64,000 nucleotides of DNA, taken from Thermoplasmatota archaeon. Lineage in GTDB: Archaea > Thermoplasmatota > E2 > DHVEG-1 > B18-G2. Within the stretch, counting starts at the first letter, position 1, and every line of letters begins with the position of its first letter. Position numbers and translations under genes: made by a program. The stretch lies in contig JAPDJO010000029.1 of NCBI GenBank assembly GCA_029259115.1, positions 1 to 64,000 on the forward strand, read 5' to 3'. Below, piece by piece: positions 33,933 through 48,992 of the stretch. A model generated the notes under the pieces. The model had not been told where the DNA came from. It made no database searches and saw only the letters and a program-made list of their open reading frames with translations.

Positions 33933-33984
33933 CGGTAGTAAAATGTCATAACATTTTTAATAATCTTCCATTTACCTTCTTACC

Positions 33985-35334
33985 ATGCCCTTTATTCCAA
34001 ATTCATCATTGAAAAAGGAGATGCTGAAAGAGATCGGATTAAGGAGCATAGATGAACTATTTTCTGATATTCCCGAAGAAATTAGGATAAATGATCTCAA
34101 CTTACCTGAAGGATTAACCGAAGAGGAGGTTGTAAAAAAACTCAGGGAGATATCCAAGAAGAATAAACCCTTTCCGGATGTGCTTTCTTTCTTGGGCGGA
34201 GGAGTGAAACCTCATTATGTACCATCTGCTGTAAAGCATATTCTCATGAGATCTGAGTTTTATACCTCATACACTCCTTATCAGCCAGAAGCTTCACAGG
34301 GCTTTCTGCAAGCGATGTTCGAGTATCAAAGCATAATAGCGGAGCTGACAGGTATGGATATAGCCAATTGCTCTCTCTATGATATGTCAACGTCTCTGGG
34401 AGAAGCGGTTAGGATGTGTATGAGAATAAATAGGAAAAGAAGGGTACTGATTCCCAGAAATTTATCGTGGGAGAGGAAATCTGTTTTGGGAAATTATATC
34501 AGAGGATTGAATGCAGAAATAGTAGAGATAGATTATGATAGAGAAACTGGAAGAGTAAATACCTCAGATTTGGAAAAAAAGATAAATGGTGACGCATGCT
34601 GTTTATACATAGAAAATCCAAATTATTTTGGGATATTTGAGGAAGATATTGATGAGATATCAGAAATGACTCACAAAAGAGGAGTTCTTCTCATAGCTGG
34701 AGTAGATCTTTTATCGTTAGCTCTAGTGAAACCTCCGGGAGATTATAATGCTGATATTGCCATAAGTGAGGGTAGAACTTATGGTACAACCATGAATATG
34801 GGTGGATCCTCACTCGGAATATTTGCATGCAAGAAGGAGTTTCTCAGAAATATGCCTGGAAGGATAATAGGTTTAACCCATGATTTAGATGGAAATAGAG
34901 CATTTTGTATGACTCTCCAAACAAGAGAACAACACATAAGAAGAGAAAGGGCGACTAGCAACATATGTACAAATGAATCACTAAATGCATTAGCTACTTT
35001 AATTTACATCTCTCTCCTAGGAAGTAAAGGACTTGTTGATCTAGCAAAAAGAAACTTAGAGAATGCCAGAAAGTTGTATGAGAAATTGATCTCTCTTCCA
35101 TGGTTCAAACCTGCATTCTCTGGAAGATACTTCAACGAGTTCGTTCTTAGATCATCTCAAGATGTGTACTATATGAACAGAGAACTTTTGAAAAGAGACA
35201 TAATTGCTGGTTTACCTCTTGAAAAGCATTTCCCTGAGCTTGAGAGATGCATGCTATTCGGAATAACAGAAGTCTACAGCGAAGAAGATATGGACAAACT
35301 TGTGAGAGCAATAAAGGAGGTGTATCATGTATAG
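33985..35334 (+). CDS. gcvPA: Glycine dehydrogenase subunit 1
   Basis: YTPYQPE.SQG, TREQHIRRE.ATSNICTN. Confidence 0.95.
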   Translation: MPFIPNSSLKKEMLKEIGLRSIDELFSDIPEEIRINDLNLPEGLTEEEVVKKLREISKKNKPFPDVLSFLGGGVKPHYVPSAVKHILMRSEFYTSYTPYQPEASQGFLQAMFEYQSIIAELTGMDIANCSLYDMSTSLGEAVRMCMRINRKRRVLIPRNLSWERKSVLGNYIRGLNAEIVEIDYDRETGRVNTSDLEKKINGDACCLYIENPNYFGIFEEDIDEISEMTHKRGVLLIAGVDLLSLALVKPPGDYNADIAISEGRTYGTTMNMGGSSLGIFACKKEFLRNMPGRIIGLTHDLDGNRAFCMTLQTREQHIRRERATSNICTNESLNALATLIYISLLGSKGLVDLAKRNLENARKLYEKLISLPWFKPAFSGRYFNEFVLRSSQDVYYMNRELLKRDIIAGLPLEKHFPELERCMLFGITEVYSEEDMDKLVRAIKEVYHV

Positions 35335-36763
35335 GTTTGCAAGGTTCGATGAACCTCTGCTAAACAAGCTTCCCCAGAAAAAGGTAGAGATAGATGTTTA
35401 TCACCCTTCTATCCCAGATAAATTAAGGAGAAAACGTCCTCCAAACATACCAAATTTGGAAGAGCAACAGGTAGTTAGACATTTCTTTAGACTTAGTCAG
35501 ATGAATTATGGCATAGAAAATGGGATGTATCCTCTTGGCTCCTGCACAATGAAGTATAATCCAAAGATATGCGAAGATATAGCAAGTTGGAGAGAGTTTA
35601 CAGATATTCACCCATATCAGGATGAATCTACATTTCAAGGGACTCTCGAGATGCTTTATGAATTGGAAGCGATGCTAAAAGAGATAACCGGCATGGATGC
35701 ATTCTCTTTCCAGCCTGCTGCGGGTGCACATGGTGAATTTCTTGGGATGTTACTTGTTAGAGCGTATCACGAATTTAATGGAGATACTGACAGGAAAGAA
35801 GTGATAATTCCAGATACAGCTCACGGGACAAATCCAGCCTCAGCCAAGATGGCAGGATTCGATGTCATCGAGATACCCTCGAATAATGAAGGCACTGTGG
35901 ATCTAGAAGCTTTGAGAAAAGTTCTTTCAGATAAAACAGCAGCCCTGATGCTGACAAATCCGAATACCCTTGGTATATTTGAATCCGATATACTAGAAAT
36001 TGAGAAGATGGTTCACGATGCAGGTGCACTTCTCTACTACGATGGTGCAAATCTCAATGCAATCCTTGGAAAAGCTAGACCTGGAGATATGGGCTTCGAC
36101 ATAGTTCATCTCAATTTTCATAAGACTTTTGCTACCCCACATGGTGGTGGTGGACCTGGGGCTGGACCTGTTGGGGTAAAAGAGAGTCTTGAGAAGTTTT
36201 TGCCTGTGCCAAGGATAAAAAAGGATGGAAAGAGGTATGTTTTAGATTATGATAAACCTTATTCCATAGGGAAAATAAGAGATTTCTATGGAAATATAGA
36301 GGTTTGTATCAAAGCTTACGTTTATCTTTTGATGATGGGTAAAAGCCTGAAAGAGGTAGCAGAGATTTCTGTTTTAAATTCAAATTACATGAAGGAGAAG
36401 CTGAAAAAATCTGGTTTCTACGAGTTACCATATAAAGATCTAAGGAAACATGAGTTTGTCGTAAGTTGCGAGAAACTTCTAAGAGAGAAAGGGATAAGAG
36501 CGCTCGATGTGGCAAAGAGATTGCTTGATTATGGTATGCATCCTCCAACCATATACTTTCCCCTAATAGTCAAAGAGGCTCTTATGATAGAGCCTACAGA
36601 GACAGAAACCAAGGAAGATATAGATGCTTATGTTGATGCTCTCATATCTATAGCTAAGGAAGATCCGGAAGTAGTAAGATCAGCTCCGAGTAAAACGCCT
36701 GTTAAGAGGGTAGATGAAGCAAGCGCAGCAAAGAACCCAGTTTTAACTTGGAAGGACATCTAA
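35327..36763 (+). CDS. gcvPB: Glycine dehydrogenase subunit 2
   Basis: PLGSCTMKYNP, AHGTNPASA, HKTF.TPHGGGGPG. Confidence 0.96.
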   Translation: MYRFARFDEPLLNKLPQKKVEIDVYHPSIPDKLRRKRPPNIPNLEEQQVVRHFFRLSQMNYGIENGMYPLGSCTMKYNPKICEDIASWREFTDIHPYQDESTFQGTLEMLYELEAMLKEITGMDAFSFQPAAGAHGEFLGMLLVRAYHEFNGDTDRKEVIIPDTAHGTNPASAKMAGFDVIEIPSNNEGTVDLEALRKVLSDKTAALMLTNPNTLGIFESDILEIEKMVHDAGALLYYDGANLNAILGKARPGDMGFDIVHLNFHKTFATPHGGGGPGAGPVGVKESLEKFLPVPRIKKDGKRYVLDYDKPYSIGKIRDFYGNIEVCIKAYVYLLMMGKSLKEVAEISVLNSNYMKEKLKKSGFYELPYKDLRKHEFVVSCEKLLREKGIRALDVAKRLLDYGMHPPTIYFPLIVKEALMIEPTETETKEDIDAYVDALISIAKEDPEVVRSAPSKTPVKRVDEASAAKNPVLTWKDI

Positions 36764-37607
36764 TAGGAAACATCCATCGAAGGTAAGTGTTTCTGATTTC
36801 GCCACCATTGTCTATACTATCTCCACTATTTTCACCAACGTTTATCGTAAAGTGGGCAATCTCTATGTTTCCAATGGTTTTTGCAACGATTCTTATCCTA
36901 ATTGTGTACCTTCCTTCATCTCTGTATTTGTGGGAAATTTCTCCAGATTTGCTTACACTTTGAGGGCCTACTATGCTTCTGCTTCCGTCTCCCCAATCTA
37001 TGACATATGTTACATACTTAGGTAACTTGCTTTCTATATCTTGAGGTACAGGTTTTCCAAGTTTTGCACATACTACGCCAGCAATAACCAGATTGGAATA
37101 GTAGAGGTTTATCTGGAGGTTCTCTAAAATGCCGTATATCCCAAGGAACGCAAAGACATCCCAGTAAAAGATCTTGTCCATTTTTACAGGATACTCTAAT
37201 CTTCCACTTGCATCTTTCATAAAGGTCTTCATATCTAGATTCTTTCCCTCCTTGGCGCCTTGCATACGGTATACGCCAATCACTCCGACATCTGGAGGAG
37301 AGAAGAGATCATCTTCTATTAAATCCACGTTGTAATCCACGTGCATACTGAAATCTCCTGATACTGATTTCGTTATAACCCCTATGGTTCCTCCCATTAA
37401 CTTTGTTCCTTCTACACTAGCACTCACAAGTTTTCTATCTCCGTCTATAATTACTGATCCTATCTTTATCTCATCATCTCCTGTTGTTGGATTTGGTTTT
37501 ATATGATTGATAACTGAAGTGGACCTGTGATTTGCTCCCACAGAGAGTGTTGAAAAAACTAGTATGCATACTATAAAAACACCCAATATCCCCCTCATTT
37601 TTATCAT
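36702..37607 (-). CDS. Secreted protein with PKD-like domain
   Basis: Signal peptide; YVIDWGDGS...SHKY...G.YTI; 3' end overlaps gcvPB by 62 nt. Confidence 0.75.
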   Translation of the reverse strand: MIKMRGILGVFIVCILVFSTLSVGANHRSTSVINHIKPNPTTGDDEIKIGSVIIDGDRKLVSASVEGTKLMGGTIGVITKSVSGDFSMHVDYNVDLIEDDLFSPPDVGVIGVYRMQGAKEGKNLDMKTFMKDASGRLEYPVKMDKIFYWDVFAFLGIYGILENLQINLYYSNLVIAGVVCAKLGKPVPQDIESKLPKYVTYVIDWGDGSRSIVGPQSVSKSGEISHKYRDEGRYTIRIRIVAKTIGNIEIAHFTINVGENSGDSIDNGGEIRNTYLRWMFPIRCPSKLKLGSLLRLLHLPS

Positions 37608-37697
37608 AAATCCAATAATTTTACTTGTATAAATATTTAATCCTTCTTATCTTAGAAGATGCACTACGAAAACATTTAATTACTGGATAAATCTTAC

Positions 37698-39083
37698 ATG
37701 TTAAGGAATAACATGGGGGAAATATCGTTTGATGAGTATATTAAAAAGTTTGACAGACTGGAATCCAGATATATACCTCCTAAAGAGGAGTGGCTACCTC
37801 CTGATGAGGCTCTATATGGAGTGAAAGATATATATAGAGTTCCCCTAGAGAAGGCAAAGAAGCTGAGATTTAAAGCCATAAAATACACATTTAAGCATCA
37901 CTACGAAAATAATAAGTTTTATAGAAACCTCTGTAAAGAGAAAAACGTATCCCCAGATGATATCAAAAGCGAGGAAGATTTTCTGAAGATACCTCTCTTA
38001 CCTGATAAATTCTTCAAGAATTATCCTGAGGGAAAGGAGTTCGCATTCTGGATAGCAAATATATATACAGGCGATTTACCCAGCATTTTCATAAAGAAAA
38101 AGAACCCAAAGATAGATGATATAATAAGGGAGTTTAACAGAAAAGGATTGAGAATAGCATACAGCAGCGGAACAAGCGGAAGGCACACGTTCATACCAAG
38201 GGATGAAAGAACGTTTAATAGAGCCGTCTATGGTGGAGCGAAAGGATTTGTATCAATGGCCTATCCAAGATGGGATTTTGATAAAATCCATGGGTATCTC
38301 TCCTTGTATGCAAGAAATATAAACTTATTTGCAGGAATGATGGGAGGCATTTTTACTGATATGCTGAAATACATTGACTATGGATTTGTTTTGAATATAG
38401 AGGTAACAACAGATATACTACAAGCTGCGATGAGAGGAAGGAGGAACATTCTCATAAGATTAGCATCGCTTTACATAGACTGGAGGAGAACTAGGAAGTT
38501 TATAGAGTGGTTGAAGGAGAGAGATAGGGATAAAGACGATATCGCTCTACTTGGAGCACCATTCTTCCTGAACCATATCATGAGTCTGTTGGAGAAGAAA
38601 GGACTATCTTTTGATTTCGGAGATAAAAGCTTTGTTGTTACCGGCGGCGGCTGGAAAATCAGAGAAAATGTAAGAATAACAACCAAAGAGTTTAGGGATA
38701 GAGTGGAGAAGGTTTTGGGTATACCTCATACCAATTGTTTAGACGCTTACGGAATGGTAGAAGGTAATGGCTTTATGTTCCACTGTCCAGAGGGGCATTA
38801 CTTACATATACCCTACTCGTATTACTACCCAATAATCATTGGTAAGGATGGAGAGCCTGCTGGATATGGAGAGACTGGAAGATTTGCATTTCTGGATGCT
38901 CTCGCTACTAGTTACCCAGGATTCATAATCTCAGGTGACGAAGTCAAACTTCTAGAGCACTGTCCAGTCTGTGATAGACCTGGTCCGGTTTTAGAGCCTG
39001 AGATAAAAAGAGCAAAAGGAGAAGAGGTAAGAGGTTGTGCTGAAGAGGTAAGAAGGATGTTGTCCATAGGTTCAGGTGATTAA
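37698..39083 (+). CDS. LuxE-like acyl-protein synthetase, copy 1
   Basis: SSGTSG adenylation loop, TGGGWK, D.YGMVE, SYPGFII.GD, C-terminal RGC. Confidence 0.88.
   Translation: MLRNNMGEISFDEYIKKFDRLESRYIPPKEEWLPPDEALYGVKDIYRVPLEKAKKLRFKAIKYTFKHHYENNKFYRNLCKEKNVSPDDIKSEEDFLKIPLLPDKFFKNYPEGKEFAFWIANIYTGDLPSIFIKKKNPKIDDIIREFNRKGLRIAYSSGTSGRHTFIPRDERTFNRAVYGGAKGFVSMAYPRWDFDKIHGYLSLYARNINLFAGMMGGIFTDMLKYIDYGFVLNIEVTTDILQAAMRGRRNILIRLASLYIDWRRTRKFIEWLKERDRDKDDIALLGAPFFLNHIMSLLEKKGLSFDFGDKSFVVTGGGWKIRENVRITTKEFRDRVEKVLGIPHTNCLDAYGMVEGNGFMFHCPEGHYLHIPYSYYYPIIIGKDGEPAGYGETGRFAFLDALATSYPGFIISGDEVKLLEHCPVCDRPGPVLEPEIKRAKGEEVRGCAEEVRRMLSIGSGD
38932..39047 (+). repeat. Near-identical C-terminal segment of LuxE genes (copies 38932-39047, 41301-41416, 43567-43653)
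   Basis: 112/116 nt identical between copies 1 and 2; copy 3 matches each at 85/87; all mismatches synonymous. Confidence 0.92.
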
Positions 39084-40068
39084 AATGGAAGATGACATGG
39101 AAGAGGTTGTTTCAAAAAAACTAAAGCTGATAATGTTCAAAGGAATGATAGCTCTGGGATGGGTTCTTTTGACTAATATAGGAACATTCAGAAGAATGGG
39201 TAAAGTTGCGAAGGAAGTGAAATACGTTAGACCTCCAAGGAGGTATGATATTCCTAAATACAAAGAAGGAATGAAGGTTTGCGAGTCTGATGAAAAATAT
39301 CTCAGACCCACTCCTTACTGCAACTATAGAGTACCAGAGATAATAGCTCTAGCTAATGAGCTTGGAGCATTCAAAAAATCAGACTACGAGTATGCCAAAT
39401 CAGTATTCGAATTTGTTAAGAGGAACATTATCTTGGAATTTCTACCAATGGATGATGCTAGAGATACTCTTCTAAGAGGTACAGGGACATGCATCCATAA
39501 AATCTCTTTGTTCATCGCTCTATGCAGAGCTGCAGGCATAAAGGCCAGATATAAATTGTATGCACCAATAATGACGCAAGCCTGGTATGATCATCTGATA
39601 GGAGCTGATCCTCTGGCTCAGCAGTGGTATAATGCTATGGGATACTTCTTACTACATGGTGAAGGAGAAGTTTACATAGATGGAAAATGGATAGTAGCTG
39701 ATGTAGGTCCAACTCCAGAAAGGCAGGCAGCACAGGGGATACCTATAACAAAATTCGGGGAAGATTCAATCGGAACTTGGTTTTATGCAGTGCCTAACAC
39801 TATAACAAAAGTAGAATCCATAACCTCTCTAGGTTTAGGAGGAAAAATGACGAGACCTCTCTTAAGAGTTTTCATGAATAAAATAGCAAAAGTACCTCTT
39901 GCTAGACTGAATAACAGTATTCTCGAGCAAATAGAGAGAGGAAAAAAGATATTAGAAGAAATGGGTGAAGAAGAATATGATAAAAAAGCAAGAGAGAAAT
40001 ACAAACCAATGATGTTAAAGCCAGAATTGTTGGAAAGAAAACCTGGATTAAGATTTAAAGGAGAGTGA
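39076..40068 (+). CDS. Transglutaminase-like cysteine enzyme
   Basis: TL..GTGTC..K..L..ALCRAAGI.ARY; H(GEGEVY)..GKW...D gives a Cys-His-Asp triad. Confidence 0.88.
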   Translation: MIKMEDDMEEVVSKKLKLIMFKGMIALGWVLLTNIGTFRRMGKVAKEVKYVRPPRRYDIPKYKEGMKVCESDEKYLRPTPYCNYRVPEIIALANELGAFKKSDYEYAKSVFEFVKRNIILEFLPMDDARDTLLRGTGTCIHKISLFIALCRAAGIKARYKLYAPIMTQAWYDHLIGADPLAQQWYNAMGYFLLHGEGEVYIDGKWIVADVGPTPERQAAQGIPITKFGEDSIGTWFYAVPNTITKVESITSLGLGGKMTRPLLRVFMNKIAKVPLARLNNSILEQIERGKKILEEMGEEEYDKKAREKYKPMMLKPELLERKPGLRFKGE

Positions 40069-40072
40069 TACC

Positions 40073-41449
40073 ATGAAAGATTTTGATGAGTATATTGAGA
40101 AATTTGAAAAAATCATGAAGAAATATAAGATACCAAGATCGAAATGGACACCACAAGATGAGGTTGTATACTCCCCAAAAGATCCTTTTAGAGTACCACC
40201 AAAGGAGGCGGAAGAATTAAGATTCAAAGCCCTGAAATACTCTTTTGCACATCACTATAAGAACAATACATTTTACAACAAACTATGTAAAGAAAAAGGG
40301 ATCAAACCGGATGACATAAAGAAACCGTCTGATCTTACCAAAATACCTCTCATACCAGATAAATTTTTCAAGGATTATCCAGAGGATGGTAAATCCTTTG
40401 CCATGTGGTTGAGCAATATTTATACAGGAAAACTTCCAGAGATCTACATCAAAAAGAGAAATCCAAAGACAGAGGATGTTATAGATGACTTCAACACCTC
40501 GGGTCTAACAGTTACATTGAGTAGTGGAACGAGTGGAAGACACACGTTCATACCAAGAGATGCCGATACAATAAGGAGAGCAAGCTACTCAATAGCAAAG
40601 AATGTAGTTTCGATGCTCTATCCTTTTTGGGAATACAATATGACAATGTATAAACAAACAGATCCATCTGGAACAAATCTCTGGGTTGGAAAATCTGGAG
40701 CAGTTATTACAGAGATAGTAAAAGAGGCAAGGGTAGGAACAAAAATAAAGATAACTCCAAAGATGGTTAGATTGAGTATGGGAGGAGCAAGAAATTTCAT
40801 AGAGAGAATTGAGAGCAAAATTATTAGATCGATTGCTAAGAGACACAGGGAGAAAATGATTGATGATTTTATAAATCTGTTAGAAGAAATGGAAAAGAGG
40901 GGGACAAAACTAGGTCTTATAGTTCAACCTTCTTTCATGAACATGATCATGAAAGTTCTAGAGAGGAGGGGACTAAGTTTTGACTTCAGTGAAAATGGAG
41001 CAATGTTGACAGGCGGTGGCTGGAAAATAAGTGAGAACGAAAGGATACCACACAAGGAGTACAGGGAGAGAGTAGGAAAGTATCTTTCTATACCAGAGGA
41101 AAGAATACTGGATGTCTATGGAATGGTTGAATGCAATACCGGAATGATACAATGCCCTGAAGGACATTACCTGCATATTCCCTACACTCAAATATATCCG
41201 ATGGTACTTGATGAAAATCTAGAACCCAAAGGATATGGAGAAGTCGGTAGATTTGCATTTTTGGAAGTCACAGCAAGCAGCTATCCGAGCTTCATAATAA
41301 CAGGTGACGAAGTCAAACTTCTAGAGCACTGCCCAGTCTGTGATAGACCTGGTCCGGTTCTAGAGCCTGAGATAAAGAGAGCAAAGGGAGAAGAGGTAAG
41401 AGGTTGTGCTGAAGAGATGAGGAGATTATTCTCTATTAGTGAGGATTGA
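40073..41449 (+). CDS. LuxE-like acyl-protein synthetase, copy 2
   Basis: SSGTSG, TGGGWK, DVYGMVE, RGC. Confidence 0.88.
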   Translation: MKDFDEYIEKFEKIMKKYKIPRSKWTPQDEVVYSPKDPFRVPPKEAEELRFKALKYSFAHHYKNNTFYNKLCKEKGIKPDDIKKPSDLTKIPLIPDKFFKDYPEDGKSFAMWLSNIYTGKLPEIYIKKRNPKTEDVIDDFNTSGLTVTLSSGTSGRHTFIPRDADTIRRASYSIAKNVVSMLYPFWEYNMTMYKQTDPSGTNLWVGKSGAVITEIVKEARVGTKIKITPKMVRLSMGGARNFIERIESKIIRSIAKRHREKMIDDFINLLEEMEKRGTKLGLIVQPSFMNMIMKVLERRGLSFDFSENGAMLTGGGWKISENERIPHKEYRERVGKYLSIPEERILDVYGMVECNTGMIQCPEGHYLHIPYTQIYPMVLDENLEPKGYGEVGRFAFLEVTASSYPSFIITGDEVKLLEHCPVCDRPGPVLEPEIKRAKGEEVRGCAEEMRRLFSISED

Positions 41450-42239
41450 TACTGAGAAATTCTAAAGATATCATAAATATCCCTAGAACTGCAAGTAGAA
41501 CAGATATCGCTTTCATTAGTATATCTTCTGGAGAGGCATTTGCAAATTTGGCACTCAGATTTCCGCTTATTGCTGCTCCTATTCCAACAACTAATCCGCT
41601 GATTAAATCTACATTCCCATACATGGCATGAGCGAATGTAGCGAATAGAGCTGTTAGTGCCATGAGGAATGCTGCACCTCCAACAGCTTTATGCAACGGT
41701 AAATTAAAAACTAATAACAAGATAACAAAAAACCATATACCTCCAGTCGCACCGAATATGCTTGCTATCACACCTACCCACAGACCGATGCCAATTCCTA
41801 TAATTAATTTCAGATTTCTACTCTTTACGTTAAATATCGCACCAAATCTCTTCACCACCTCTTCCCTATCAAAGCCTTTCCTCCAGAGATATACACTCAT
41901 GAAAATTAAAACTATGCCGAATAAACCCCTAAGTTGAGCTTCTGGAGTTTTGAATGCTAATAATGCCCCTATCTGTGAACCTGGTATAGCTCCAAGAATG
42001 AGCCATATACAGGGTTGAAAATCTATATTCCTATTTCTGTAGTACACAGATGATACAACAGATGAGGCTATGAAGCTAGCAAGAAGCGTTGTCCCTATCG
42101 ATTCGTGAATCGAAAAACCTAAAAGAAGATAGAGCAAAGATATCATCACCACTGCGCCGCTGGCTCCGACTAAACCTATTATAATTCCCGCAAAAGAACC
42201 TATTCCAAGCATTATCGCTAAATCCATTGCAGATATCAT
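41436..42239 (-). CDS. TauE/SafE (TSUP) family permease
   Basis: Two G..G..G.GG repeats; about 8 TM. Confidence 0.88.
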   Translation of the reverse strand: MISAMDLAIMLGIGSFAGIIIGLVGASGAVVMISLLYLLLGFSIHESIGTTLLASFIASSVVSSVYYRNRNIDFQPCIWLILGAIPGSQIGALLAFKTPEAQLRGLFGIVLIFMSVYLWRKGFDREEVVKRFGAIFNVKSRNLKLIIGIGIGLWVGVIASIFGATGGIWFFVILLLVFNLPLHKAVGGAAFLMALTALFATFAHAMYGNVDLISGLVVGIGAAISGNLSAKFANASPEDILMKAISVLLAVLGIFMISLEFLSINPH

Positions 42240-42324
42240 TTTGCTGCAAGGTATCTCTATGGATGTTTAAAGAGGTTTGCAAGGTGGAAACTAATATAAA
42301 ATGCATGTGTTTTACTGTAAGGAA

Positions 42325-43716
42325 ATGGTATCATTTGATGAGTATATCAGAAAACTTGATGAAAGACTCGAAAAATATATACCTCCAAAAAAAGAATGGG
42401 GTCCTCCAGAACACGCTGTTTACGGAGTGAAAGATTTATACAATGTACCTCTGAAGAAGGCAAAAGAATTGCAATTTAAAGCCATAAAATACCAGTTCAA
42501 AAGACACTACGAAAAAAATAAATTTTATAGAGAATTCTGTAGGGGTCAAGATATTGAACCTGAAAACATCAAGAAGTATGAGGATTTGGATAAAATTCCT
42601 CTTTTGCAGGACAAATTCTTTAAAGATTATCCAGAAGGAAGGGACTTTGCCGTCTGGTTAAGTAATACATTTACTGGAGATCTTCCAACTATAAGAATAA
42701 GAGAAAAGCACCCGACATACGATGATGTAATAAAGGCATTCAACTCAGCAGGTCTTGCTATATCTCATAGTAGTGGAACAAGCGGGAGACATACGTTTAT
42801 TCCGAGAGATAAAAAGACTTTTGATATAGCAGAGTATGCCCTTGCAAAAGCTATCGTATCAATGGTATATCCGCTATGGGAATATGATATTTCTGCATAT
42901 CTATTGATGCCGAATCCATTTAAAACAACCTTATTTGCTGGAAAGGTGTGTGGAGTCCTTTATGATGCTGTGAAAGATGTTACTTCTGCTATAGATAGAG
43001 AGATAACAACTGAGACAATAAGACTTCTAATGTCAGGAAGAGGAATAAAAGCCTCATTTATCAGATTGGCAGCAGCTATAAGTGGAAAAAAGATAATCAA
43101 AAACATAGTAAAATGGTTAGAAGAGAAAGAAAAAAAGAAAGGCAAGATTGCCTTCGTTGGTGCCCCTTATATATTGCATGAGGTCATAGAATATCTTAAA
43201 AGGGAAGGGAAAACTTTCGATTTCTCTGACAGAGGAGGAGTAGTAACTGGTGGCGGCTGGAAGATACATGAAAATAGAAGGCTGCCTGTCGAAGATTTCA
43301 TAAAGGAAGTTAATGAGACCCTTGGAATAAAGGAAGAACATTGTTTAGATGTCTATGCTATGGTTGAGGGTAATGGTATAATGACTCATTGCCCAGAGGG
43401 GCATTATCTACATATCCCCATAACATATCTACATCCAATGGTCATAGACAAGGATATGAATCCTGTAGATTACGAAGAATATGGCAGATTCGCCTTTCTG
43501 GATGGAACAGCTTATAGTTATCCAGGTTTTATTGTTAGCGGAGACAGAGTTAGAATGCTTGAGAGATGTCCAGTCTGTGATAGACCTGGTCCGGTTCTAG
43601 AGCCTGAGATAAAGAGAGCAAAAGGAGAAGAGGTAAGAGGTTGTGCTGAAGAGGTAAGGAGAATGTTGACAATGGATGTTGGTAGAGATCAGGGGGTGTT
43701 TGTTTGGAAAAGATAA
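42325..43716 (+). CDS. LuxE-like acyl-protein synthetase, copy 3
   Basis: Start MVSFDEY matches the paralogues; SSGTSG, TGGGWK, DVYAMVE, RGC. Confidence 0.88.
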   Translation: MVSFDEYIRKLDERLEKYIPPKKEWGPPEHAVYGVKDLYNVPLKKAKELQFKAIKYQFKRHYEKNKFYREFCRGQDIEPENIKKYEDLDKIPLLQDKFFKDYPEGRDFAVWLSNTFTGDLPTIRIREKHPTYDDVIKAFNSAGLAISHSSGTSGRHTFIPRDKKTFDIAEYALAKAIVSMVYPLWEYDISAYLLMPNPFKTTLFAGKVCGVLYDAVKDVTSAIDREITTETIRLLMSGRGIKASFIRLAAAISGKKIIKNIVKWLEEKEKKKGKIAFVGAPYILHEVIEYLKREGKTFDFSDRGGVVTGGGWKIHENRRLPVEDFIKEVNETLGIKEEHCLDVYAMVEGNGIMTHCPEGHYLHIPITYLHPMVIDKDMNPVDYEEYGRFAFLDGTAYSYPGFIVSGDRVRMLERCPVCDRPGPVLEPEIKRAKGEEVRGCAEEVRRMLTMDVGRDQGVFVWKR

Positions 43717-45134
43717 GTTTCCCTGAGCCCGAAAAGGTGTTGAAAGAAAAACCTTCTCTGAAGAAGTATCTGAAGTATTTACTGTTTTTTGGACCTGGAG
43801 CAATAATAGCCTCTGTAACCATAGGTCAGGGTCAACTCATACTAGGCCCTCAATTGGGGGCATGGGCTGGTCCAAGGCTACTTTGGCTTATAACCATAAA
43901 CATAGCCTCTTACATAATAGCATACCTAAGTTGCAGATATACCTTGATCACCGGACTCAACATGATGGACGTATTTTCTACCAAGTTGAAAGGGATTCTG
44001 AATATTATTTTCATACTGATAATGCTGATATTCGTTCCTATATTTGCAGCAACTATAATAACATCTCTTGGCCAAAGTCTAGCCTGGATGTTTGGCTTTG
44101 GAGATTATCTTATCTGGGGCATTTCTTTTGCTTTGCTTGCTGCGATACTTGCGGTAGCTGGAAGATATAGATTGCTGGAGTACACTCAATTGATTTTTGT
44201 TTTAATTCTAGCAATAGGAGCAATAGTATCGGTAGCTATGATACCCAATCTGAATCTTGCAGAGATAGTTCCACACTTTTTCACAATCGGTGATTTTCCA
44301 GAGTATCCGCAATGGGTCATAGATATGGGTGAAGCAACGAAGCCGATTCCTTTGTTGATACTGGGATACGTAGGTACCCTCACTATAACCATAGTTACGC
44401 TAGTTGGGTATGCTGGATGGGTAAAGGTAAAAGGCTGGGGTATCTTTAAGGATCAGAAAGATCCCGAGAGATTATCAAGAAGATTATTCTCTCTATTTAA
44501 GAAGGCCGGTAAGGTTGAATATCTTCCAAAGGATAAGAAGGAGATTAGGAAAGCAAAACTCCTAACAAAGCCTATATTGATAGATCTGTCTCTTGCTTTC
44601 ATATTCGTATCGATAGCATCTGCAGCATACATGATAGCAGGCTATTACCTGTTAGGCCCAAGGCATGAGTTACCCACAGATATAGATCTTCTCAAAAAAC
44701 AAGCAATTATATTTTCCAACATAGCGTCGTGGCTTAAGCCTCTATATCAAATAAGCGTATTCTTTGCCTTATTTGGTACAATCTATGGTGGATTTGAGGC
44801 TGCATCTAGGATGTTATATGAGACTAGTAAAAACCTGATCAGAAGGGTATCACTCCTAGACTATCCAAAGTTTATGCAATACTTCTTGATATATATTCTC
44901 GCACTTGGATTACCTCTAGCTATACTTATGAGATTTGGACTATCTGTTATAGTGATGTTGAGTATCACTTTACTATTCATAGGTGTTATAGGGGTCATAA
45001 TATATGGAGTAGGAACAATCTATGTCATACAAACTACTTTACCCAAAGAGTACAAACTAAATAAATTTACTTTATCTCTAGGAGTAATAGCAATAATATT
45101 ACTTCTAGTACCGTTTCTGTCATTTGTCATGTAG
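43704..45134 (+). CDS. NRAMP-like (APC superfamily) transporter lacking the DPGN metal motif
   Basis: GPGAIIAS..IG.G.LI..P..GA..G; about 11 TM; TTG start overlapping luxE3 after GGGGGTG. Confidence 0.75.
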   Translation: MEKISFPEPEKVLKEKPSLKKYLKYLLFFGPGAIIASVTIGQGQLILGPQLGAWAGPRLLWLITINIASYIIAYLSCRYTLITGLNMMDVFSTKLKGILNIIFILIMLIFVPIFAATIITSLGQSLAWMFGFGDYLIWGISFALLAAILAVAGRYRLLEYTQLIFVLILAIGAIVSVAMIPNLNLAEIVPHFFTIGDFPEYPQWVIDMGEATKPIPLLILGYVGTLTITIVTLVGYAGWVKVKGWGIFKDQKDPERLSRRLFSLFKKAGKVEYLPKDKKEIRKAKLLTKPILIDLSLAFIFVSIASAAYMIAGYYLLGPRHELPTDIDLLKKQAIIFSNIASWLKPLYQISVFFALFGTIYGGFEAASRMLYETSKNLIRRVSLLDYPKFMQYFLIYILALGLPLAILMRFGLSVIVMLSITLLFIGVIGVIIYGVGTIYVIQTTLPKEYKLNKFTLSLGVIAIILLLVPFLSFVM

Positions 45135-45151
45135 AAAATTATTCCAATTAA

Positions 45152-45427
45152 ATTAGTCGTATAAATATTCTCCATCACATCGAAGATCTAAGATCAGTTA
45201 TACGAGAAATCAAGAGAGTATTAAAGAGTGGAGGCATCGTATTTGTTCTAGATTTTTATAGAGATTCTCTCCTTGGAAAGATAATAAATCTCTATGAAAG
45301 GATCTTATCAAATCCCGGACTCATAGACCCTTTCCACCTCGAAAAACTTTTCAAAGAAGAGGGTTTTGAGGGAAAGATAAAAATGGTGTCTAATTTTCAG
45401 TATGTTTATCTCGGAAAGAAATCGTAG
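45152..45427 (+). pseudogene. C-terminal remnant of class I SAM methyltransferase
   Basis: Frame reads ISRINILHHIEDLRSVIREIKRVLKSGGIVFVLDF...; in-frame stop at 45149, no start codon, no motif I. Confidence 0.7.
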
Positions 45428-46040
45428 TCTTTCTTGAAATAACACAGATCTTTATCTTGTTTAGACCCTTCAAATCTTTCATATCCATTACCTCTATTTC
45501 TTCAAATCCAGAGGTTTGTAATAAATCTAGAACATATCTGAGGTTGTGAGGTTTAAATCCAAATATCTTTCCAAGAATTTTTCCAAAGATGTTATTCCTT
45601 ATAACTAGGACGAGAAGTTTGCCATCACTCTTGATAGTTTTATAAACTTCTTTAAAAAGATTTTCAGGATCTATATACTCTATAAGACCGGATGTAACAA
45701 CAAAATCCAAGGAATCTTCTTTAATTGGTATGCCCAGTGATAGATCAGCCTTTACCAAATCTATGTTTTTGATTCTTTCATTGCGCGTATATTCATGCAA
45801 AATTTTCAATAAACCATTCGACTCATCTACCGCGATCACTCTGCAATTCCTATTTCTCTTCGCTATAAATATGGATAGAAGACCTGATCCGCAACCTAGA
45901 TCAGATACAATTCCATCAAAATCGAATTTGTTGAGCAGTTTTCCTATCGCTCTCTTATATCCAAATACACTTATTATCCAATCATACAACCTCGGAAACT
46001 TTTTGAATAACAGATATCTCTGTATCGTGAATTTCCCCAT
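45390..46040 (-). CDS. Class I SAM-dependent methyltransferase
   Basis: DLGCGSG, AVD, AD...P...SLD.V. Confidence 0.88.
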   Translation of the reverse strand: MGKFTIQRYLLFKKFPRLYDWIISVFGYKRAIGKLLNKFDFDGIVSDLGCGSGLLSIFIAKRNRNCRVIAVDESNGLLKILHEYTRNERIKNIDLVKADLSLGIPIKEDSLDFVVTSGLIEYIDPENLFKEVYKTIKSDGKLLVLVIRNNIFGKILGKIFGFKPHNLRYVLDLLQTSGFEEIEVMDMKDLKGLNKIKICVISRKTTISFRDKHTEN

Positions 46041-46097
46041 TCAAGATGTAATAGATAAGAAAAACTTATGTATCTTTGCAAATTATTATTTTATAGT

Positions 46098-46182
46098 GCA
46101 GGGGTAGCCAAGCCTGGTCAAAGGCGCCAGACTCAAGATCTGGTCCCGGAGGGGTTCAGGAGTTCGAATCTCCTCCCCTGCA
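46098..46182 (+). tRNA. tRNA-Leu(CAA)
   Basis: GCAGGGG/CCCCTGC acceptor, CCAGA-CTCAAGA-TCTGG anticodon arm, long variable arm, TTCGAAT loop. Confidence 0.96.
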
Positions 46183-46185
46183 CTT

Positions 46186-46758
46186 TTAAAATCTGTTGAT
46201 ATGAAGAATTTTCTCGAGTCTTCTCTTAGGTACATGCATTACTCCATCTTTATCTCTCCAGTACCTTATCGAATCTTCCGCATCTTCAACAACAGATTTC
46301 TCTGCAGGAAAACCGAGAGCAATAACAGAATGGATATAGTATTCTGGTGGAATGTTTAAGATGTCTCTAAGAAAATCTCTGTCAATATTTCCAAGCATAC
46401 AGCTACCTATACCATAGGAATATGCTAGAATCATGATGTTCTCTGCAGCCAGCCCTACATCGATATCTGAGAATTGGCTGATTCCCTTCTTTACGAGAAT
46501 TACTATGTAAGCTGTCGGTCTCTCCTCCTTATCGGGCTTCCATTCAGGTTTTATATATCCTGCCCACCTTAGAGCAGGGAATATCTTGTCACATAATTTT
46601 TGATCGTTGATGACTATATATTCGAGAGGTTGAAGGTTTGCGCCGGAAGGCGCTAACCTAGCTGCGTTCACTAATTTTTTGAGAAATTCTAGAGGAATAG
46701 GGATCTGTTTGAATCTTCTTATAGATCTTCTACCAATAATAGCAGATTCCACGTCCAT
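46186..46758 (-). CDS. Nitroreductase family protein
   Basis: RRSIR.F, APSGANLQP, A.ENI...A...GIGSC. Confidence 0.92.
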   Translation of the reverse strand: MDVESAIIGRRSIRRFKQIPIPLEFLKKLVNAARLAPSGANLQPLEYIVINDQKLCDKIFPALRWAGYIKPEWKPDKEERPTAYIVILVKKGISQFSDIDVGLAAENIMILAYSYGIGSCMLGNIDRDFLRDILNIPPEYYIHSVIALGFPAEKSVVEDAEDSIRYWRDKDGVMHVPKRRLEKILHINRF

Positions 46759-46821
46759 GCAGAAGAGAATACTCACGGATAAGAAAACCCTTTTGTATCT
46801 ATTATCACATCATCTAAAATA

Positions 46822-48303
46822 ATGAAGATAAAAAGAAGGAAAGGCGGATTTGTAAAGACAGCACCAAAATCCCTAGAAAAGAAGATATTGGATAATGCAG
46901 TTAAGATTAAGGAAGACTTTACAATAATTCTACCAGTACCTGTAGATGAAAAATCTAAAAAATCCATAGGCAAGCTTAGAAAGAAATTGGAAAAGGTTTG
47001 GCAGTATAGAGACGATACCAAAAAACTTGAAAAGATTTCTAAAAAGAAAGGGCTGGAGTCTGCACTTGCAGGAATTTTGATACTAGCCAATAATCCTAAG
47101 GCTCCTTATCTAGCTCATGTTAAGATAGGGGATAGAGATGTCGCATATGCGTTGAGAGGAAAAGCAGAAAAAGAGAAACTTATTTCTTTGCAATACTTCG
47201 ATGATCCCGTGCTGCGTATTTTGGGATTTATAGATTTGTGCAGCAAAAAGAATCTTTCGTTATACTCATGGAAGGATAAATTCCTGTGCTCCTCAAAAGA
47301 TGATATCCCTGAAGATTTTCTGGAATTCCTGTCCACTTACCTAGGATTACAGAGGGAAGGGTCTCTACTAAAATGTCATCATATATGTTCAGATAGAGCA
47401 ACTAAGGAACATTTGTTGATTAGATTGAAAAATCTAAAAATAGCGATCTGTAGGGATTGCCTTGAGGATAAAAATACGGTTTTCGAGATAACAAAGCATG
47501 CTTTTATTCCGAATATCCAAAAGGTTTTAAGCATTGAGATAAAGTCAGAACTTCTAGAGTATGGGGTAGAGGTTGAGTACAAAGAAGATTATCTAAGCGG
47601 TAAATTGAATGACAGGGAATTCTTTGAGAGGAATCTTGAAACATGGAAAAATAAACTCAAAATCGAGGAAAAGAAAATCATCTACATAAATGGTAAAGTG
47701 TACAGTGATTTTACATCATTTCTAAATGAATTGGGTATTGAGAAAACTGAAAGAAAGGCAATCGAAATCCTTCTAACAAAGATAAACGAGCCTATTTTCT
47801 TGGATAGCAAAAATGTAAATGTAATTCTCGAAAGGTATTGGAAAAGCTATGGTGAAGAAATCTTGACCGAACTCTCAGACGATCCGAATCTAGCAAAGAA
47901 GGTATTTAATCCCAGCGAATCGCCAATCAAGCAGATAAGGCATCTTGAAAGTATTAGCAAAAAAATAGATAGAATCTCAAAATATCCAACTTATGAGAAT
48001 CTTCCACCTGTAGCAAAATTCATCGATGATATAGCAAAAGAGTATATAGCTCATGGTAAAGAGAAGGTTCTATCTATTCTATCCAAACCACCTAAGGGAA
48101 TTAAAGAGAGATCTTTGGCATATGCCTTTCTTCTTGCTCTTGGAAAAGGTGAGGAAAGAAAATGGCAATATAAGAAGGAAGAGGTGGAGTTTGGTGAATT
48201 TCTTAAAAGATATGTCGTGAAGCTCTTAAGCTCAAAACCGGAGGAGTACCATGAGAATCTGAAAATGCTCCTGTCTGTGAGTGGAGTGAGTGAAGAAATC
48301 TAG
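46822..48303 (+). CDS. Hypothetical protein
   Basis: 493-aa ORF with host-like composition; C.H...C..C motif. Confidence 0.75.
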   Translation: MKIKRRKGGFVKTAPKSLEKKILDNAVKIKEDFTIILPVPVDEKSKKSIGKLRKKLEKVWQYRDDTKKLEKISKKKGLESALAGILILANNPKAPYLAHVKIGDRDVAYALRGKAEKEKLISLQYFDDPVLRILGFIDLCSKKNLSLYSWKDKFLCSSKDDIPEDFLEFLSTYLGLQREGSLLKCHHICSDRATKEHLLIRLKNLKIAICRDCLEDKNTVFEITKHAFIPNIQKVLSIEIKSELLEYGVEVEYKEDYLSGKLNDREFFERNLETWKNKLKIEEKKIIYINGKVYSDFTSFLNELGIEKTERKAIEILLTKINEPIFLDSKNVNVILERYWKSYGEEILTELSDDPNLAKKVFNPSESPIKQIRHLESISKKIDRISKYPTYENLPPVAKFIDDIAKEYIAHGKEKVLSILSKPPKGIKERSLAYAFLLALGKGEERKWQYKKEEVEFGEFLKRYVVKLLSSKPEEYHENLKMLLSVSGVSEEI

Positions 48304-48371
48304 CAGTTATTGAAATTGGATCATAACTGTTGGAATATAAGAGAAAAGATCAAAACTTGAGATATCTTGAA

Positions 48372-48992
48372 TCAATAACCCTCTTTATTTCTTTCATAGA
48401 GTTCTACGGCATTTTTTATCATTTTTATTAAAACTCCCTTAGCCTCAACCGGGCTATTTTTACCTAAGAAACTGTAGCCTGTAGCATAGCAAGGTTTCAC
48501 AACCCCTCGATCATATCCCAGAGTTATAACAGTATACATCGGTACACCGCCTTGCTTTGAGATATCGAAGGATCTATAGACATCTCTGAATGTGCCATCA
48601 ACATGATCTAGATTAATATGTATTAGAGTTATTCCAGTTCCTGAGAAATTCTTTGTTTTGACTAGGAAAGGTTTTTTTATATCATCAACATCAAAAATTT
48701 CTTTGATTATTGGATCCATTTCATCACAAGCGGAACAAACGTCTATCCTAAAATGTAAGAAGACTGGTCCTTTGGATAGATTCTCAAGAATAAATTCAGG
48801 AAAATCTTTACCGTCCACTGTCTCAAATCTAAATTCCAGAATGGTCTTTGGATCCATCTTTATACAACTTAGACATAATACTGATACAATCTTATCTTTC
48901 ACATCACTATAAACGTGTGTAGATGCAAATATGTAAGACAGTGAGACTAGAGAAATTACAAATATACTTATGGCAAGATATGTCTTTTTCAT
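48372..48992 (-). CDS. Membrane-anchored thioredoxin-fold protein
   Basis: N-terminal TM; CLSC and CSAC motifs; GVP. Confidence 0.78.
   Translation of the reverse strand: MKKTYLAISIFVISLVSLSYIFASTHVYSDVKDKIVSVLCLSCIKMDPKTILEFRFETVDGKDFPEFILENLSKGPVFLHFRIDVCSACDEMDPIIKEIFDVDDIKKPFLVKTKNFSGTGITLIHINLDHVDGTFRDVYRSFDISKQGGVPMYTVITLGYDRGVVKPCYATGYSFLGKNSPVEAKGVLIKMIKNAVELYERNKEGY

Follow-up and report, generated by a model that had tools for sequence, protein, structure and literature searches.

Known acyl-transfer systems

The closest described counterpart of the locus reported here is the LuxE-LuxC fatty acid reductase of luminous bacteria (structure 7xc6; PMC9157457). According to the published structural description, LuxE is an adenylating enzyme in which a short C-terminal motif with an acylated cysteine replaces the ANL C-terminal subdomain, and Lys238 and Arg355 form the catalytic pair of the P. 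phosphoreum enzyme (PMC9157457). The archaeal LuxE-like proteins analyzed here likewise lack this subdomain and share the short flexible cysteine motif, the Lys/Arg pair, and an adjacently encoded partner enzyme with an active-site cysteine. However, the archaeal partner has a transglutaminase (TGase) fold instead of being an aldehyde-dehydrogenase-like LuxC, neither LuxD nor luciferase is present, and the LuxE-like proteins are approximately 85 residues longer, with an extra cysteine-histidine set (CPxC / CPEGH).

TGase homologues that act on activated acyl groups are represented by AdmF (andrimid) and CtaJ (closthioamide), which are described as using protein-bound thioesters or thioamides as donors in amide bond formation (PMC7898593). 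The likeness lies in this described chemistry, with a Cys-His-Asp TGase proposed to move the acyl group of a protein-bound thioester to an amine. Their donors, however, are phosphopantetheinyl carriers in bacterial secondary-metabolite clusters, whereas the donor of the archaeal module would be the synthetase's own cysteine, and its genes belong to the core gene set of an archaeal lineage. With regard to fold, the PaaK-family AMP-ligases (PaaK1, BT_0428, NatL2, AjiA1, and ClxA) gave the best matches to the LuxE2 model (Foldseek E about 1e-15 to 1e-9, TM about 0.5-0.6), and the N-terminal region was also matched by sequence, but these ligases have a C-terminal subdomain, use CoA or a co-substrate directly, and carry no cysteine tail. 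By analogy only, the ubiquitin E1-E2 system follows the same order of events, from adenylation over an E1 cysteine thioester and a second enzyme's cysteine to an amide on an amine, though with unrelated folds, and the archaeal system would carry a small acyl group instead of a protein C-terminus.

The locus and its genome

The host is a marine-sediment archaeon represented by a 1.4-Mb Thermoplasmatota MAG (98.7% complete, 5.48% contamination). Within the analyzed window, a stretch of 64,000 nucleotides, all six open reading frames of the initial annotation were recovered at their coordinates and with the junctions first noted:

37698-39083, plus strand: luxE1, LuxE-family adenylating enzyme of the PaaK fold, 461 aa (PF04443, 106.1 bits; SSGTSG, TGGGWK, RGC tail)
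39076-40068, plus strand: TGase, transglutaminase-core Cys-His-Asp enzyme, 330 aa, GTG start (PF01841, 48.5 bits)
40073-41449, plus strand: luxE2, LuxE-like paralogue, 458 aa (PF04443, 114.2 bits)
41436-42239, minus strand: TauE/SafE-family permease (PF01925, E 5e-41)
42301-43716, plus strand: luxE3, LuxE-like paralogue, 471 aa as called (PF04443, 88.8 bits)
43704-45134, plus strand: Nramp-related (LeuT-fold) membrane protein, TTG start (NCBIfam Nramp_1, 90.1 bits)

The Pfam cut-offs were 24.9 bits for PF04443 and 23 bits for PF01841. luxE1 lies directly 5' of the TGase gene and overlaps it by 8 nt, which is the canonical position for the module, while luxE2 follows on the 3' side after a gap of 4 nt, an arrangement also found in the same-genus genome G042. 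Further downstream, luxE3 and the Nramp-like gene overlap by 13 nt. The TauE gene had been placed correctly within the cluster, but it sits on the opposite strand, convergent with luxE2 and overlapping its end by 14 nt. No TauE homologue occurred among the 20 related loci compared, and the permease is no conserved part of the module. The absence of luxC, luxD, luxAB, and a carrier gene, which had been claimed for the window, holds for the whole host genome, where no LuxC (PF05893), LuxD, bacterial luciferase, or PP-binding carrier was found.

The LuxE-like synthetases

As first noted, SSGTSG and a C-terminal RGC are present in all three LuxE translations. The three proteins reached 100.4, 92.8, and 94.6 bits against the equivalog model NCBIfam NF052244, which denotes the same function as lux LuxE and has a cut-off of 550. 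In the PDB sequence search, luxE2 matched LuxE best (7xc6_E, E 3.7e-22), and its TGGGWK lysine (K318), R436, and RGC align to Lys238, Arg355, and KGC of that chain. T153, K318, R436, and C445 are kept in 53/53 LuxE-like sequences, and S150, S151, G152, T153, and G155 of the P-loop-like SSGTSG motif are invariant in an alignment of 60 sequences. The AF2 model of luxE2 (pLDDT 90.9) is PaaK-like, with PaaK1 as top fold match (2y27, E 2.7e-16, TM 0.58), and after the last core strand it is predicted to continue for only about 40 residues, which form loops, short strands, and a single helix. The four invariant cysteines, C445 among them, might conceivably be ligands of a structural metal.

The cysteine tail itself is encoded by a tract of 87 nt that occurs in each of the three genes:

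38961-39047, plus strand: luxE1 copy, encoding the CPxC...RGCAEE tail
41330-41416, plus strand: luxE2 copy
43567-43653, plus strand: luxE3 copy

Among the three paralogues, 83-85 of the 87 nt are identical, compared with 61-66% identity across the whole genes. Because the cysteine-tail tract is nearly identical in all three, its sequence points to gene conversion. The tail may have been homogenized neutrally, by gene conversion that started from already high similarity.

The initial annotation had proposed three synthetases of different specificity. In the tree, luxE1 and luxE2 are lineage-specific sisters (clade A) and luxE3 belongs to a separate TGase-Nramp-like subclade, grouping with LuxE proteins of families f2 and f43 that have LuxE-TGase-Nramp-like operons. 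Lone genes also occur, among them luxE3 and a second TGase on another contig (C5) of the host, and this second TGase is probably the cognate enzyme of luxE3.

The transglutaminase-core enzyme

C139, H194, and D209 of the window TGase occupy the catalytic columns of the family alignment, in agreement with the Cys-His-Asp triad first read from the sequence. The cysteine is kept throughout two alignments (119/119 and 68/68 sequences), while the His/acid pair comes in two forms. In the larger alignment, H194/D209 is found in 76 sequences and a swapped E194/H209 in 43, with no mixed case; in the smaller one, 43 sequences have H/D, 22 have E/H, and 3 are odd. All three odd sequences come from family f43 and have no histidine at either catalytic column.

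The lack of a cleavable signal peptide was also confirmed, as the N-terminal helix is only marginally hydrophobic (best 19-residue hydropathy 1.64; values above 1.6 in only 30/119 family members). The TGase is probably cytoplasmic with an amphipathic N-terminal helix. The AF2 model (pLDDT 85.5) matched 3isr (Z 11.8) as well as TG2 and factor XIII (Z 9.1 each). The nearest structures are mostly putative proteases and isopeptidases (besides 3isr, PeiW with 8.3 and LapG with 8.1). Matches to the arylamine N-acetyltransferase/amide synthase fold reached Z 7.0-8.0 over 163-178 residues (GdmF 7.0), and these acyltransferase scores are no higher than those of proteases from the same superfamily.

Pairing across the phylum

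The linkage of the two genes in other genomes, on which the initial annotation had staked its proposal, proved to be strongly conserved. In a sample of 401 Thermoplasmatota genomes, 78 carried the TGase, and LuxE was also present in 77 of these. Adjacency was counted for 150 listed TGase matches, with 47 LuxE rows left unlisted and LuxE required within 400 bp. At least 101 of the 150 had such a neighbor, which in 100/101 cases was encoded on the same strand immediately 5' of the TGase gene, and among the matches listed, one or more adjacent pairs occur in at least 72 of the 78 genomes with a TGase. Of the remaining 49 TGases without a listed LuxE within 400 bp, 14 had one at up to 5 kb and 35 had none. 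Many of these 49 were located at contig ends.

Junctions in the 48 unique pairs obtained from the fetched loci ranged from -70 to +85 nt, most of them falling between -16 and +7. Tree distances of LuxE and TGase were correlated over 47 pairs, with a Mantel r of 0.81, a value reached in 0/2000 permutations. When the LuxE clades A, B, and C were placed on the TGase tree, two changes, the minimum, sufficed. The two families diversified jointly into three paralogous pair clades, and up to three pairs occur per genome. In two families, all sampled genomes carry the module, and in two further families most genomes do, so that the earlier remark that it would be unusual in an archaeon was misleading. 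No published account of a LuxE-TGase pairing was found in a literature search.

A cognate LuxC was found neither in the host genome nor in the host's own family f1 (0/4), in f3 (0/14), or in f6 (0/12; PF05893 in each case). A fourth clade of LuxE, clade D, which nests inside the tree of the same LuxE-like family and retains the CPxC...RGC tail, lies beside LuxC in 12 genomes of family f2 (manual comparison of two listings), with the operon order SCP2-LuxE-SCP2-LuxC. In these 12 compared cases, the LuxC genes adjoin clade D and not the TGase-paired LuxE. That clade D, with the tail motif retained, adjoins LuxC suggests that the TGase takes the LuxC position. The pairing is that of a LuxE-type synthetase with a TGase in place of the usual reductase partner.

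The Nramp-related protein

The Nramp-like gene could be regarded as a bystander, but this was not borne out, as all 59 genomes that carry it also have the TGase (59/59). Its immediate 5' neighbor is the TGase gene in 33 genomes and a LuxE gene in 2, and it is phyletically linked to the module. Its product exceeds the NCBIfam Nramp_1 cut-off of 50 bits, had no Pfam match at E 0.01, and had human NRAMP2 as its sole PDB sequence match (E 3.9e-4, covering TM1-3). It thus resembles the Nramp divalent-metal transporters in the Nramp_1 match and the TM1 alignment, but differs in the missing Pfam Nramp match, in its restriction to module-bearing genomes, and in having GQGQ where TM1 of human NRAMP2 has DPGN, which we take to be the metal-binding motif. 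This transporter without a metal site probably carries a substrate, acceptor, or product of the module.

Proposed relay and alternative explanations

We consider the chances about even that these genes form a lineage-wide Thermoplasmatota module of a LuxE-type self-acylating synthetase and a cytoplasmic TGase-fold cysteine enzyme instead of LuxC. In such a module, the LuxE-like enzyme would adenylate a carboxylic acid, as its family motifs and fold suggest, and, by homology to LuxE, then bind the acyl group through the invariant cysteine in its C-terminal tail, which is short and flexible. The tail would then hand the acyl group to Cys139 of the TGase, which would play the role of the LuxC cysteine in the lux system; the conserved operon, the co-diversification, and the LuxC-partnered sister clade all point to this step. 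Following the AdmF/CtaJ-type precedents, the TGase may finally pass the acyl group to an amine, either a small molecule or a protein lysine, with formation of an amide, or to water. Neither CoA nor a carrier protein would be needed, and the genome search yielded no LuxC or PP-binding domain as another candidate acceptor. The host would operate this relay with three synthetases whose tail is gene-converted; one TGase is encoded between luxE1 and luxE2 and the second on the other contig. Indirect support comes from clade D, because a sister clade sharing the tail is paired with LuxC instead.

A LuxE2-TGase complex was also predicted, which scored 0.57 (runs 0.54, 0.57, and 0.60) against 0.00 for the best of three controls and so reached the mark, but as a weak pass in a score range shared with passing mismatches. 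Partner pLDDT reached 75 or more, and 62% or more of the contacts were shared between the runs. In the calibration, 58/80 solved complexes and 2/110 mismatched pairs reached the mark; only 7/80 solved complexes, and both passing mismatches, passed at 0.60 or under. The full reading, a CoA- and carrier-free relay from the LuxE tail cysteine over the TGase cysteine to an amine or protein lysine, is offered tentatively, with the odds somewhat against it. As a counterpart of the E1-to-E2 transfer with small molecules, it would be core to a class-level lineage of sediment Thermoplasmatota, in which a genome has as many as three pairs evolving together, and would be coupled to a transporter derived from Nramp by loss of the metal site.

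Among the alternatives, the most probable, though still unlikely, is a catabolic or salvage pair. Here, the transporter would import an amide-linked compound (an N-acyl amino acid, or a gamma-glutamyl or isopeptide-linked fragment), a TGase-fold amidase or isopeptidase would free a carboxylic acid, and the LuxE-like ligase would activate it for subsequent metabolic use. The protease and isopeptidase structures at the top of the TGase neighbors, the many host peptidase genes near the loci (C25, M28, M29, C1), and the Nramp-like or MFS transporter genes adjoining the TGase would all suit this scheme. Yet the ligase is without the CoA-binding C-terminal subdomain of ANL enzymes and keeps the acyl-carrying cysteine in 53/53 sequences, so that the product would be expected to remain on the enzyme until an acceptor takes it over; moreover, the TGase is the sole conserved neighbor with a nucleophile, and LuxE comes first in 100/101 adjacent cases. 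If the acceptor were instead a lysine of a specific protein, such as a translation or envelope component, LuxE and TGase would form an E1/E2-like protein-modification cascade, which we rate as less probable than salvage. Proteins are the substrates of canonical transglutaminases, and the pairs sit amid housekeeping genes and not in biosynthetic clusters, with a SerRS-like gene, AspRS, eRF1, and L1/L10 adjoining pair clades and GluRS near a lone TGase. These translation neighbors vary by clade, however, and may reflect compact housekeeping-rich genomes; no conserved candidate target gene was found, and the transporter linkage better suits a small molecule.

That the TGase merely acts as a release or proofreading thioesterase, in an ATP-driven editing or futile step or with release of the acyl group to an unlinked acceptor, appears improbable. 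Cys-His-Asp enzymes do hydrolyze thioesters readily and the module is without a conserved acceptor-supplying gene, but ATP hydrolysis that yields no product is unlikely to have persisted in several families, with as many as three co-diversifying pairs in one genome. Finally, the genes could be mere neighbors, or the LuxE-like enzymes could have as partner a cryptic LuxC-type reductase from another locus, for which only the LuxC-partnered clade in related genomes could be adduced. Both versions are very improbable and largely refuted by the adjacency (100/101 in order), the co-diversification (Mantel r 0.81), the genome-wide LuxC search in a 98.7% complete genome, the family LuxC counts, and the clade mapping, in which f2 LuxC adjoins clade D.

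Should the relay exist, LuxE-type synthetases would be a general device for feeding enzyme-bound acyl groups to different cysteine enzymes, be it LuxC or TGase, and the archaeal enzymes would represent a third family of thioester-fed amide-forming TGases and the first without a phosphopantetheinyl carrier. The host lineage consists of abundant protein-degrading sediment archaea. In view of the broad presence of the module in abundant sediment families, its product is probably part of basic physiology, for instance as a modification of proteins, a metabolite, or a derivative of a lipid or polyamine. Direct experimental handles are offered by the natural exchange of TGase and LuxC as partners, by the two arrangements of the His/acid pair, and by the homogenized tail.

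With regard to the gene model of luxE3, homology begins at 42328, and translation probably starts from the ATG at 42325. An AT-rich TATA-like sequence is located just 5' of this gene.

Locus and host genome

Three LuxE-family synthetase genes and a gene with a transglutaminase core (TGase) form a cluster with a permease gene and an Nramp-related gene.

Genes of the cluster (window coordinates, strand, assignment)
37698–39083, +, luxE1; PF04443 (LuxE), 106.1 bits (cut-off 24.9)
39076–40068, +, TGase; PF01841, 48.5 bits (cut-off 23)
40073–41449, +, luxE2; PF04443 (LuxE), 114.2 bits (cut-off 24.9)
41436–42239, −, TauE permease; ORF call
42301–43716, +, luxE3; PF04443 (LuxE), 88.8 bits (cut-off 24.9)
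43704–45134, +, Nramp-related gene; ORF call

The tight junctions described in the initial annotation were confirmed, with an 8-nt overlap between luxE1 and the TGase gene and a 4-nt gap before luxE2, and the overlap between luxE3 and the Nramp-like gene amounts to 13 nt. As called, the luxE3 ORF starts 8 codons ahead of the start of homology (window 42301–42325). An AT-rich, TATA-like sequence lies 25–32 nt 5′ of the ATG at 42325, and the sequence suggests a short-leader or leaderless start at this position.

The assembly of the host genome comprises 1.40 Mb in 94 contigs, with a completeness of 98.7% and a contamination of 5.48%, and its only strong LuxE-family genes are the three in the window. 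The lack of luxC, first noted for the window, extends to the genome, where no LuxC match was obtained at 98.7% completeness; PP-binding carrier domains, LuxD and bacterial luciferase were likewise without a match anywhere in this assembly. With regard to a defence-system role, PADLOC returned no match for any of the six cluster proteins. Metatranscriptome contigs from four RNA-Seq runs (one sample, one study) span positions 33000–48500 on both strands at 95–99% identity and bridge the luxE1/TGase and TGase/luxE2 junctions. Since such contigs cannot prove a single transcript and the libraries possibly contained DNA, the match is taken as presence only.

Directly upstream of the cluster, two glycine-cleavage P protein subunits are encoded at 33985–36763, followed on the opposite strand by a small PKD-like secreted protein (36702–37607). 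A 235-aa protein without a Pfam match (30896–31603) has a C-terminal end that matches the Loki-CTERM (E 4.7e-6) and Heimdall-CTERM (E 1e-4) sorting domains of NCBIfam, here in a Thermoplasmatota host.

LuxE-like synthetases

With the NCBI LuxE equivalog model, whose cut-off is 550 bits, the window synthetases score about 100, and their N-termini match PaaK-type ligases in NCBIfam; they are thus LuxE-family proteins and not lux orthologues. The closest solved relative by sequence is the LuxE of the LuxC–LuxE complex (7xc6_E, E 3.7e-22), in which TGGGWK, RR and KGC align with TGGGWK, the IKR arginine and the C-terminal RGC of the archaeal proteins. According to one report, LuxE has no counterpart of the C-terminal subdomain found in adenylate-forming enzymes; in its place is a ~20-residue motif that bears the acylated Cys364, and the enzyme requires Lys238 and Arg355 (PMC9157457).

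T153, K318, C361, C420, C423, R436 and the tail cysteine C445 are each present in 53 of 53 family members, that is, the unique sequences of at least 400 aa among 64 matches in the fetched loci. The same conserved blocks were found in a 120-sequence alignment of 117/120 database matches longer than 430 aa and the three window proteins. Beyond this phylum, the Atlas indicates LuxE-like clusters in Halobacteriota and Pseudomonadota. An AlphaFold model of LuxE2 (pLDDT 90.9) gave PaaK1, BT_0428 and other PaaK-family ligases as top fold matches. Two extra motifs, CPEGH and CPxC, are invariant in the LuxE-like proteins, and our guess is that their residues C361, H365, C420 and C423 form a candidate Cys3His metal site which would leave C445 free.

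Transglutaminase-core protein

The model of the TGase (pLDDT 85.5) shows a transglutaminase core, for which the nearest fold is a putative cysteine protease (3isr, Z 11.8). Streptococcus pyogenes TglA (PDB 9crn, Z 9.6) and TG2 and factor XIII (Z 9.1) follow, together with pseudomurein isopeptidases (Z 8.0–8.3), LapG (Z 8.1), arylamine N-acetyltransferases (Z 7–8) and the amide synthase GdmF (Z 7.0). With such mixed neighbours, the fold cannot tell a hydrolase from a transferase. The sequence itself had no match in the PDB below E 0.18.

Cys139 is conserved in 119 of 119 sequences of the family and in a second set (68/68). At the His/acid columns, 76 of the 119 sequences carry H194/D209 and 43 carry E194/H209, while mixed states are absent (0); this coordinated swap argues for a maintained catalytic His–acid pair. 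The swapped type marks one subclade of clade A, one of the three TGase-paired LuxE clades (A–C). Three of the 68 sequences, LuxE-paired TGases from family f43 (L057, L058), have Glu at 194 and Val or Asn at 209; without a His at either column, these proteins may rely on a different residue or have no activity. The hydrophobicity of the N-terminal helix is marginal, and we read the TGase as cytoplasmic, perhaps membrane-associated.

The TGase family is narrow: a profile search of 1.84 billion representative proteins returned 65 matches at E ≤ 1e-30, 184 at ≤ 1e-10 and 1070 at ≤ 0.001. A LuxE–TGase fusion was considered and rejected on weak evidence, as no TGase relatives of 579–2000 aa were found at E 0.001, and no protein longer than 533 aa occurred among the best 150 of the 1070 profile matches. 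In one fetched locus (L083, 1810–5253; G292:C64, −), a 1147-aa frame directly downstream of a LuxE gene couples the N-terminal two thirds of a TGase with a C1 peptidase of the papain family and a lectin-like domain; the fusion may be genuine or the product of a chimeric assembly.

Conservation of the LuxE–TGase pair

The initial annotation had pointed to gene neighbourhoods as a check on LuxE–TGase co-occurrence, and the linkage proved to be conserved, with an adjacent pair in at least 72 genomes among the matches listed. Within a 401-genome sample of the phylum, 78 genomes gave a TGase match (3/4 in f1, the window's own family, 42/53 in f2, 14/14 in f3, 12/12 in f6 and 6/70 elsewhere) and 94 a LuxE2-like match; the two occur together in 77 of the 78. 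Adjacency was counted among 150 TGase matches listed (30 more are unlisted). Among these, 101 have a listed LuxE match within 400 bp, in 100 cases immediately upstream on the same strand; 14 more have one at up to 5 kb, and for 35 there is none among the LuxE matches listed.

The fetched loci yielded 48 unique pairs with tight junctions. One pair was removed because its LuxE is truncated; for the remaining 47, patristic distances correlate between the LuxE and TGase trees (Mantel r 0.81; 0 of 2000 permutations as high), a test that genome relatedness inflates. The deep LuxE clades A, B and C coexist within single genomes and require only 2 changes, the minimum, on the TGase tree. LuxE and TGase have co-diversified. 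A complex model of LuxE2 with the TGase, also proposed initially, gave weak support: it scored 0.57 (runs 0.54, 0.57 and 0.60; best of three controls 0.00), with partner pLDDT of at least 75 and at least 62% of contacts agreeing between runs. In calibration, the mark of the tool was passed by 58 of the 80 solved complexes and by 2 of the 110 mismatched pairs, but scores up to 0.60 comprised only 7 of the 80 solved complexes and both passing mismatches.

Across the neighbourhoods of 40 loci, no conserved third enzyme or small ORF was found. They contain the Nramp-like gene, an MFS gene, in f2 a large surface protein, and otherwise various housekeeping genes, among which translation genes are noticeably frequent, although this excess is unproven. 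In clade B pairs of f3 (L065, L073, L077, L078), a SerRS-like class II synthetase gene precedes LuxE and TGase and a Mut7-C RNase gene follows them, and clade C pairs of f2 (L070, L079, L080) come after AspRS/AsnRS-type and phosphopantothenate synthetase genes.

A sister clade partnered with LuxC

LuxC (PF05893) was found in the same 401 genomes with strong matches (E 1e-54 to 1e-67) in 15 of 53 f2 genomes, and was without a match in f1 (0/4), f3 (0/14) and f6 (0/12). A comparison of listings by hand placed it 587–612 bp downstream of a LuxE-like gene, both in the same orientation, for 12 of the 15. The adjoining LuxE-like genes belong to an "orphan" group without TGase, with 36–42% identity to LuxE2. 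This clade D is well supported inside the same LuxE-like family tree and keeps the CPxC...RGC tail; it stands beside clade C, to which the join is weak (SH-aLRT 72, long branches).

The clade D operon has the order FAD_binding_4/Fer4_8 protein (~650 aa), SCP2 (135 aa), LuxE, SCP2 (135 aa) and LuxC-like protein (~510 aa) at loci L103–L107 and L110 (G187:C15, G232:C1, G217:C45, G322:C98, G175:C5 and G325:C1). The G325 locus has no LuxC gene, and its downstream neighbour is without a Pfam match. The operon has the look of a Thermoplasmatota fatty-acid-reductase cluster for lipid handling. In the lux system, the LuxC cysteine takes the acyl group. The same tail-cysteine synthetase family is therefore found partnered with LuxC or with a TGase bearing an invariant cysteine.

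In family f9, a short LuxE (390 aa) adjoins an 818-aa LuxC fused to an AMP-binding domain (L108, G245:C1:539500–547000), and a MatE–HATPase protein comes after the fusion.

Paralogues and the homogenised tail

luxE1, luxE2 and luxE3 all fall within clade A. The first two form a sister pair (support 95–97; long branches), and luxE3 clusters with f2/f43 proteins (support 99) from LuxE–TGase–Nramp-like operons. The host genome has a second TGase on contig C5 (47634–48530; L043 8620–9597, −), with 59% identity and the swapped E194/H209 pair. It falls among the TGases of the luxE3 subclade and is a solitary gene, flanked on one side by AIR-synthase-related genes and on the other by an HTH regulator and GluRS. 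We infer that it is the former neighbour of luxE3, displaced by rearrangement.

An 87-nt tail tract is nearly the same in the three paralogues (83–85 of 87 nt and 25–27 of 29 codons identical, vs 61–66% over whole genes). Codon identity at identical residues is about 40–55% through most of the genes and 82–90% in the tail; tails compared with other genomes, where 36 of 64 LuxE matches fitted the strict motif, gave a median of 0.29 (31 comparisons). A same-genus genome shows 73–82 of 87 nt among its own paralogues vs 69–74 of 87 to the window copies. Judged from these sequences, the homogenised tract is a signature of gene conversion. It is consistent with three synthetases docking one shared partner, and it could also be neutral. 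Between alignment columns 191 and 300, amino-acid identity among the three is 23–35%, a divergence that would allow differing substrates.

Proposed acyl transfer

In the proposed mechanism, a LuxE-like synthetase would adenylate a carboxylate and hold the acyl group as a thioester on C445 of its tail, from where it would be passed to C139 of the TGase and then to an amine. The final transfer is proposed because AdmF and CtaJ, both transglutaminase homologues, make amides with protein-bound thioesters or thioamides as donors (PMC7898593). By analogy, we favour the thioester relay from the LuxE-like tail to the TGase mainly because one synthetase family partners LuxC or the invariant-cysteine TGase. 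Compared with the lux LuxE, the synthetase would be of the same type with its partner swapped, TGase for LuxC. No description of a LuxE–TGase pairing was found in the literature searched, which leaves most subscription journals outside, and one may already have been published.

Nramp-related transporter

The Nramp-related protein is present in 59 of the 401 genomes, all of them TGase-positive (59/59). Over the 64 rows examined, its gene comes 7–165 bp after a codirectional TGase gene in 33 genomes, all f2, and directly downstream of LuxE in 2 genomes of the window's genus. The remaining 29 rows place it elsewhere, mainly in f3 and f6, where its surroundings are incoherent. At some f2 loci, the gene after a second TGase is instead an MFS transporter. 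The DPGN of human NRAMP2, which we take to be a metal-binding motif, corresponds to GQGQ in the Nramp-related protein.

At L085 (1–4548; G286:C34, −), an Nramp-like protein and a large CarboxypepD_reg surface protein share one frame (1516 aa, running off the locus). This frame and that of L083 were set aside because they are single cases and possibly assembly or read-through artefacts. In other f2 loci, the CarboxypepD_reg surface protein is a separate gene after the Nramp-like gene.
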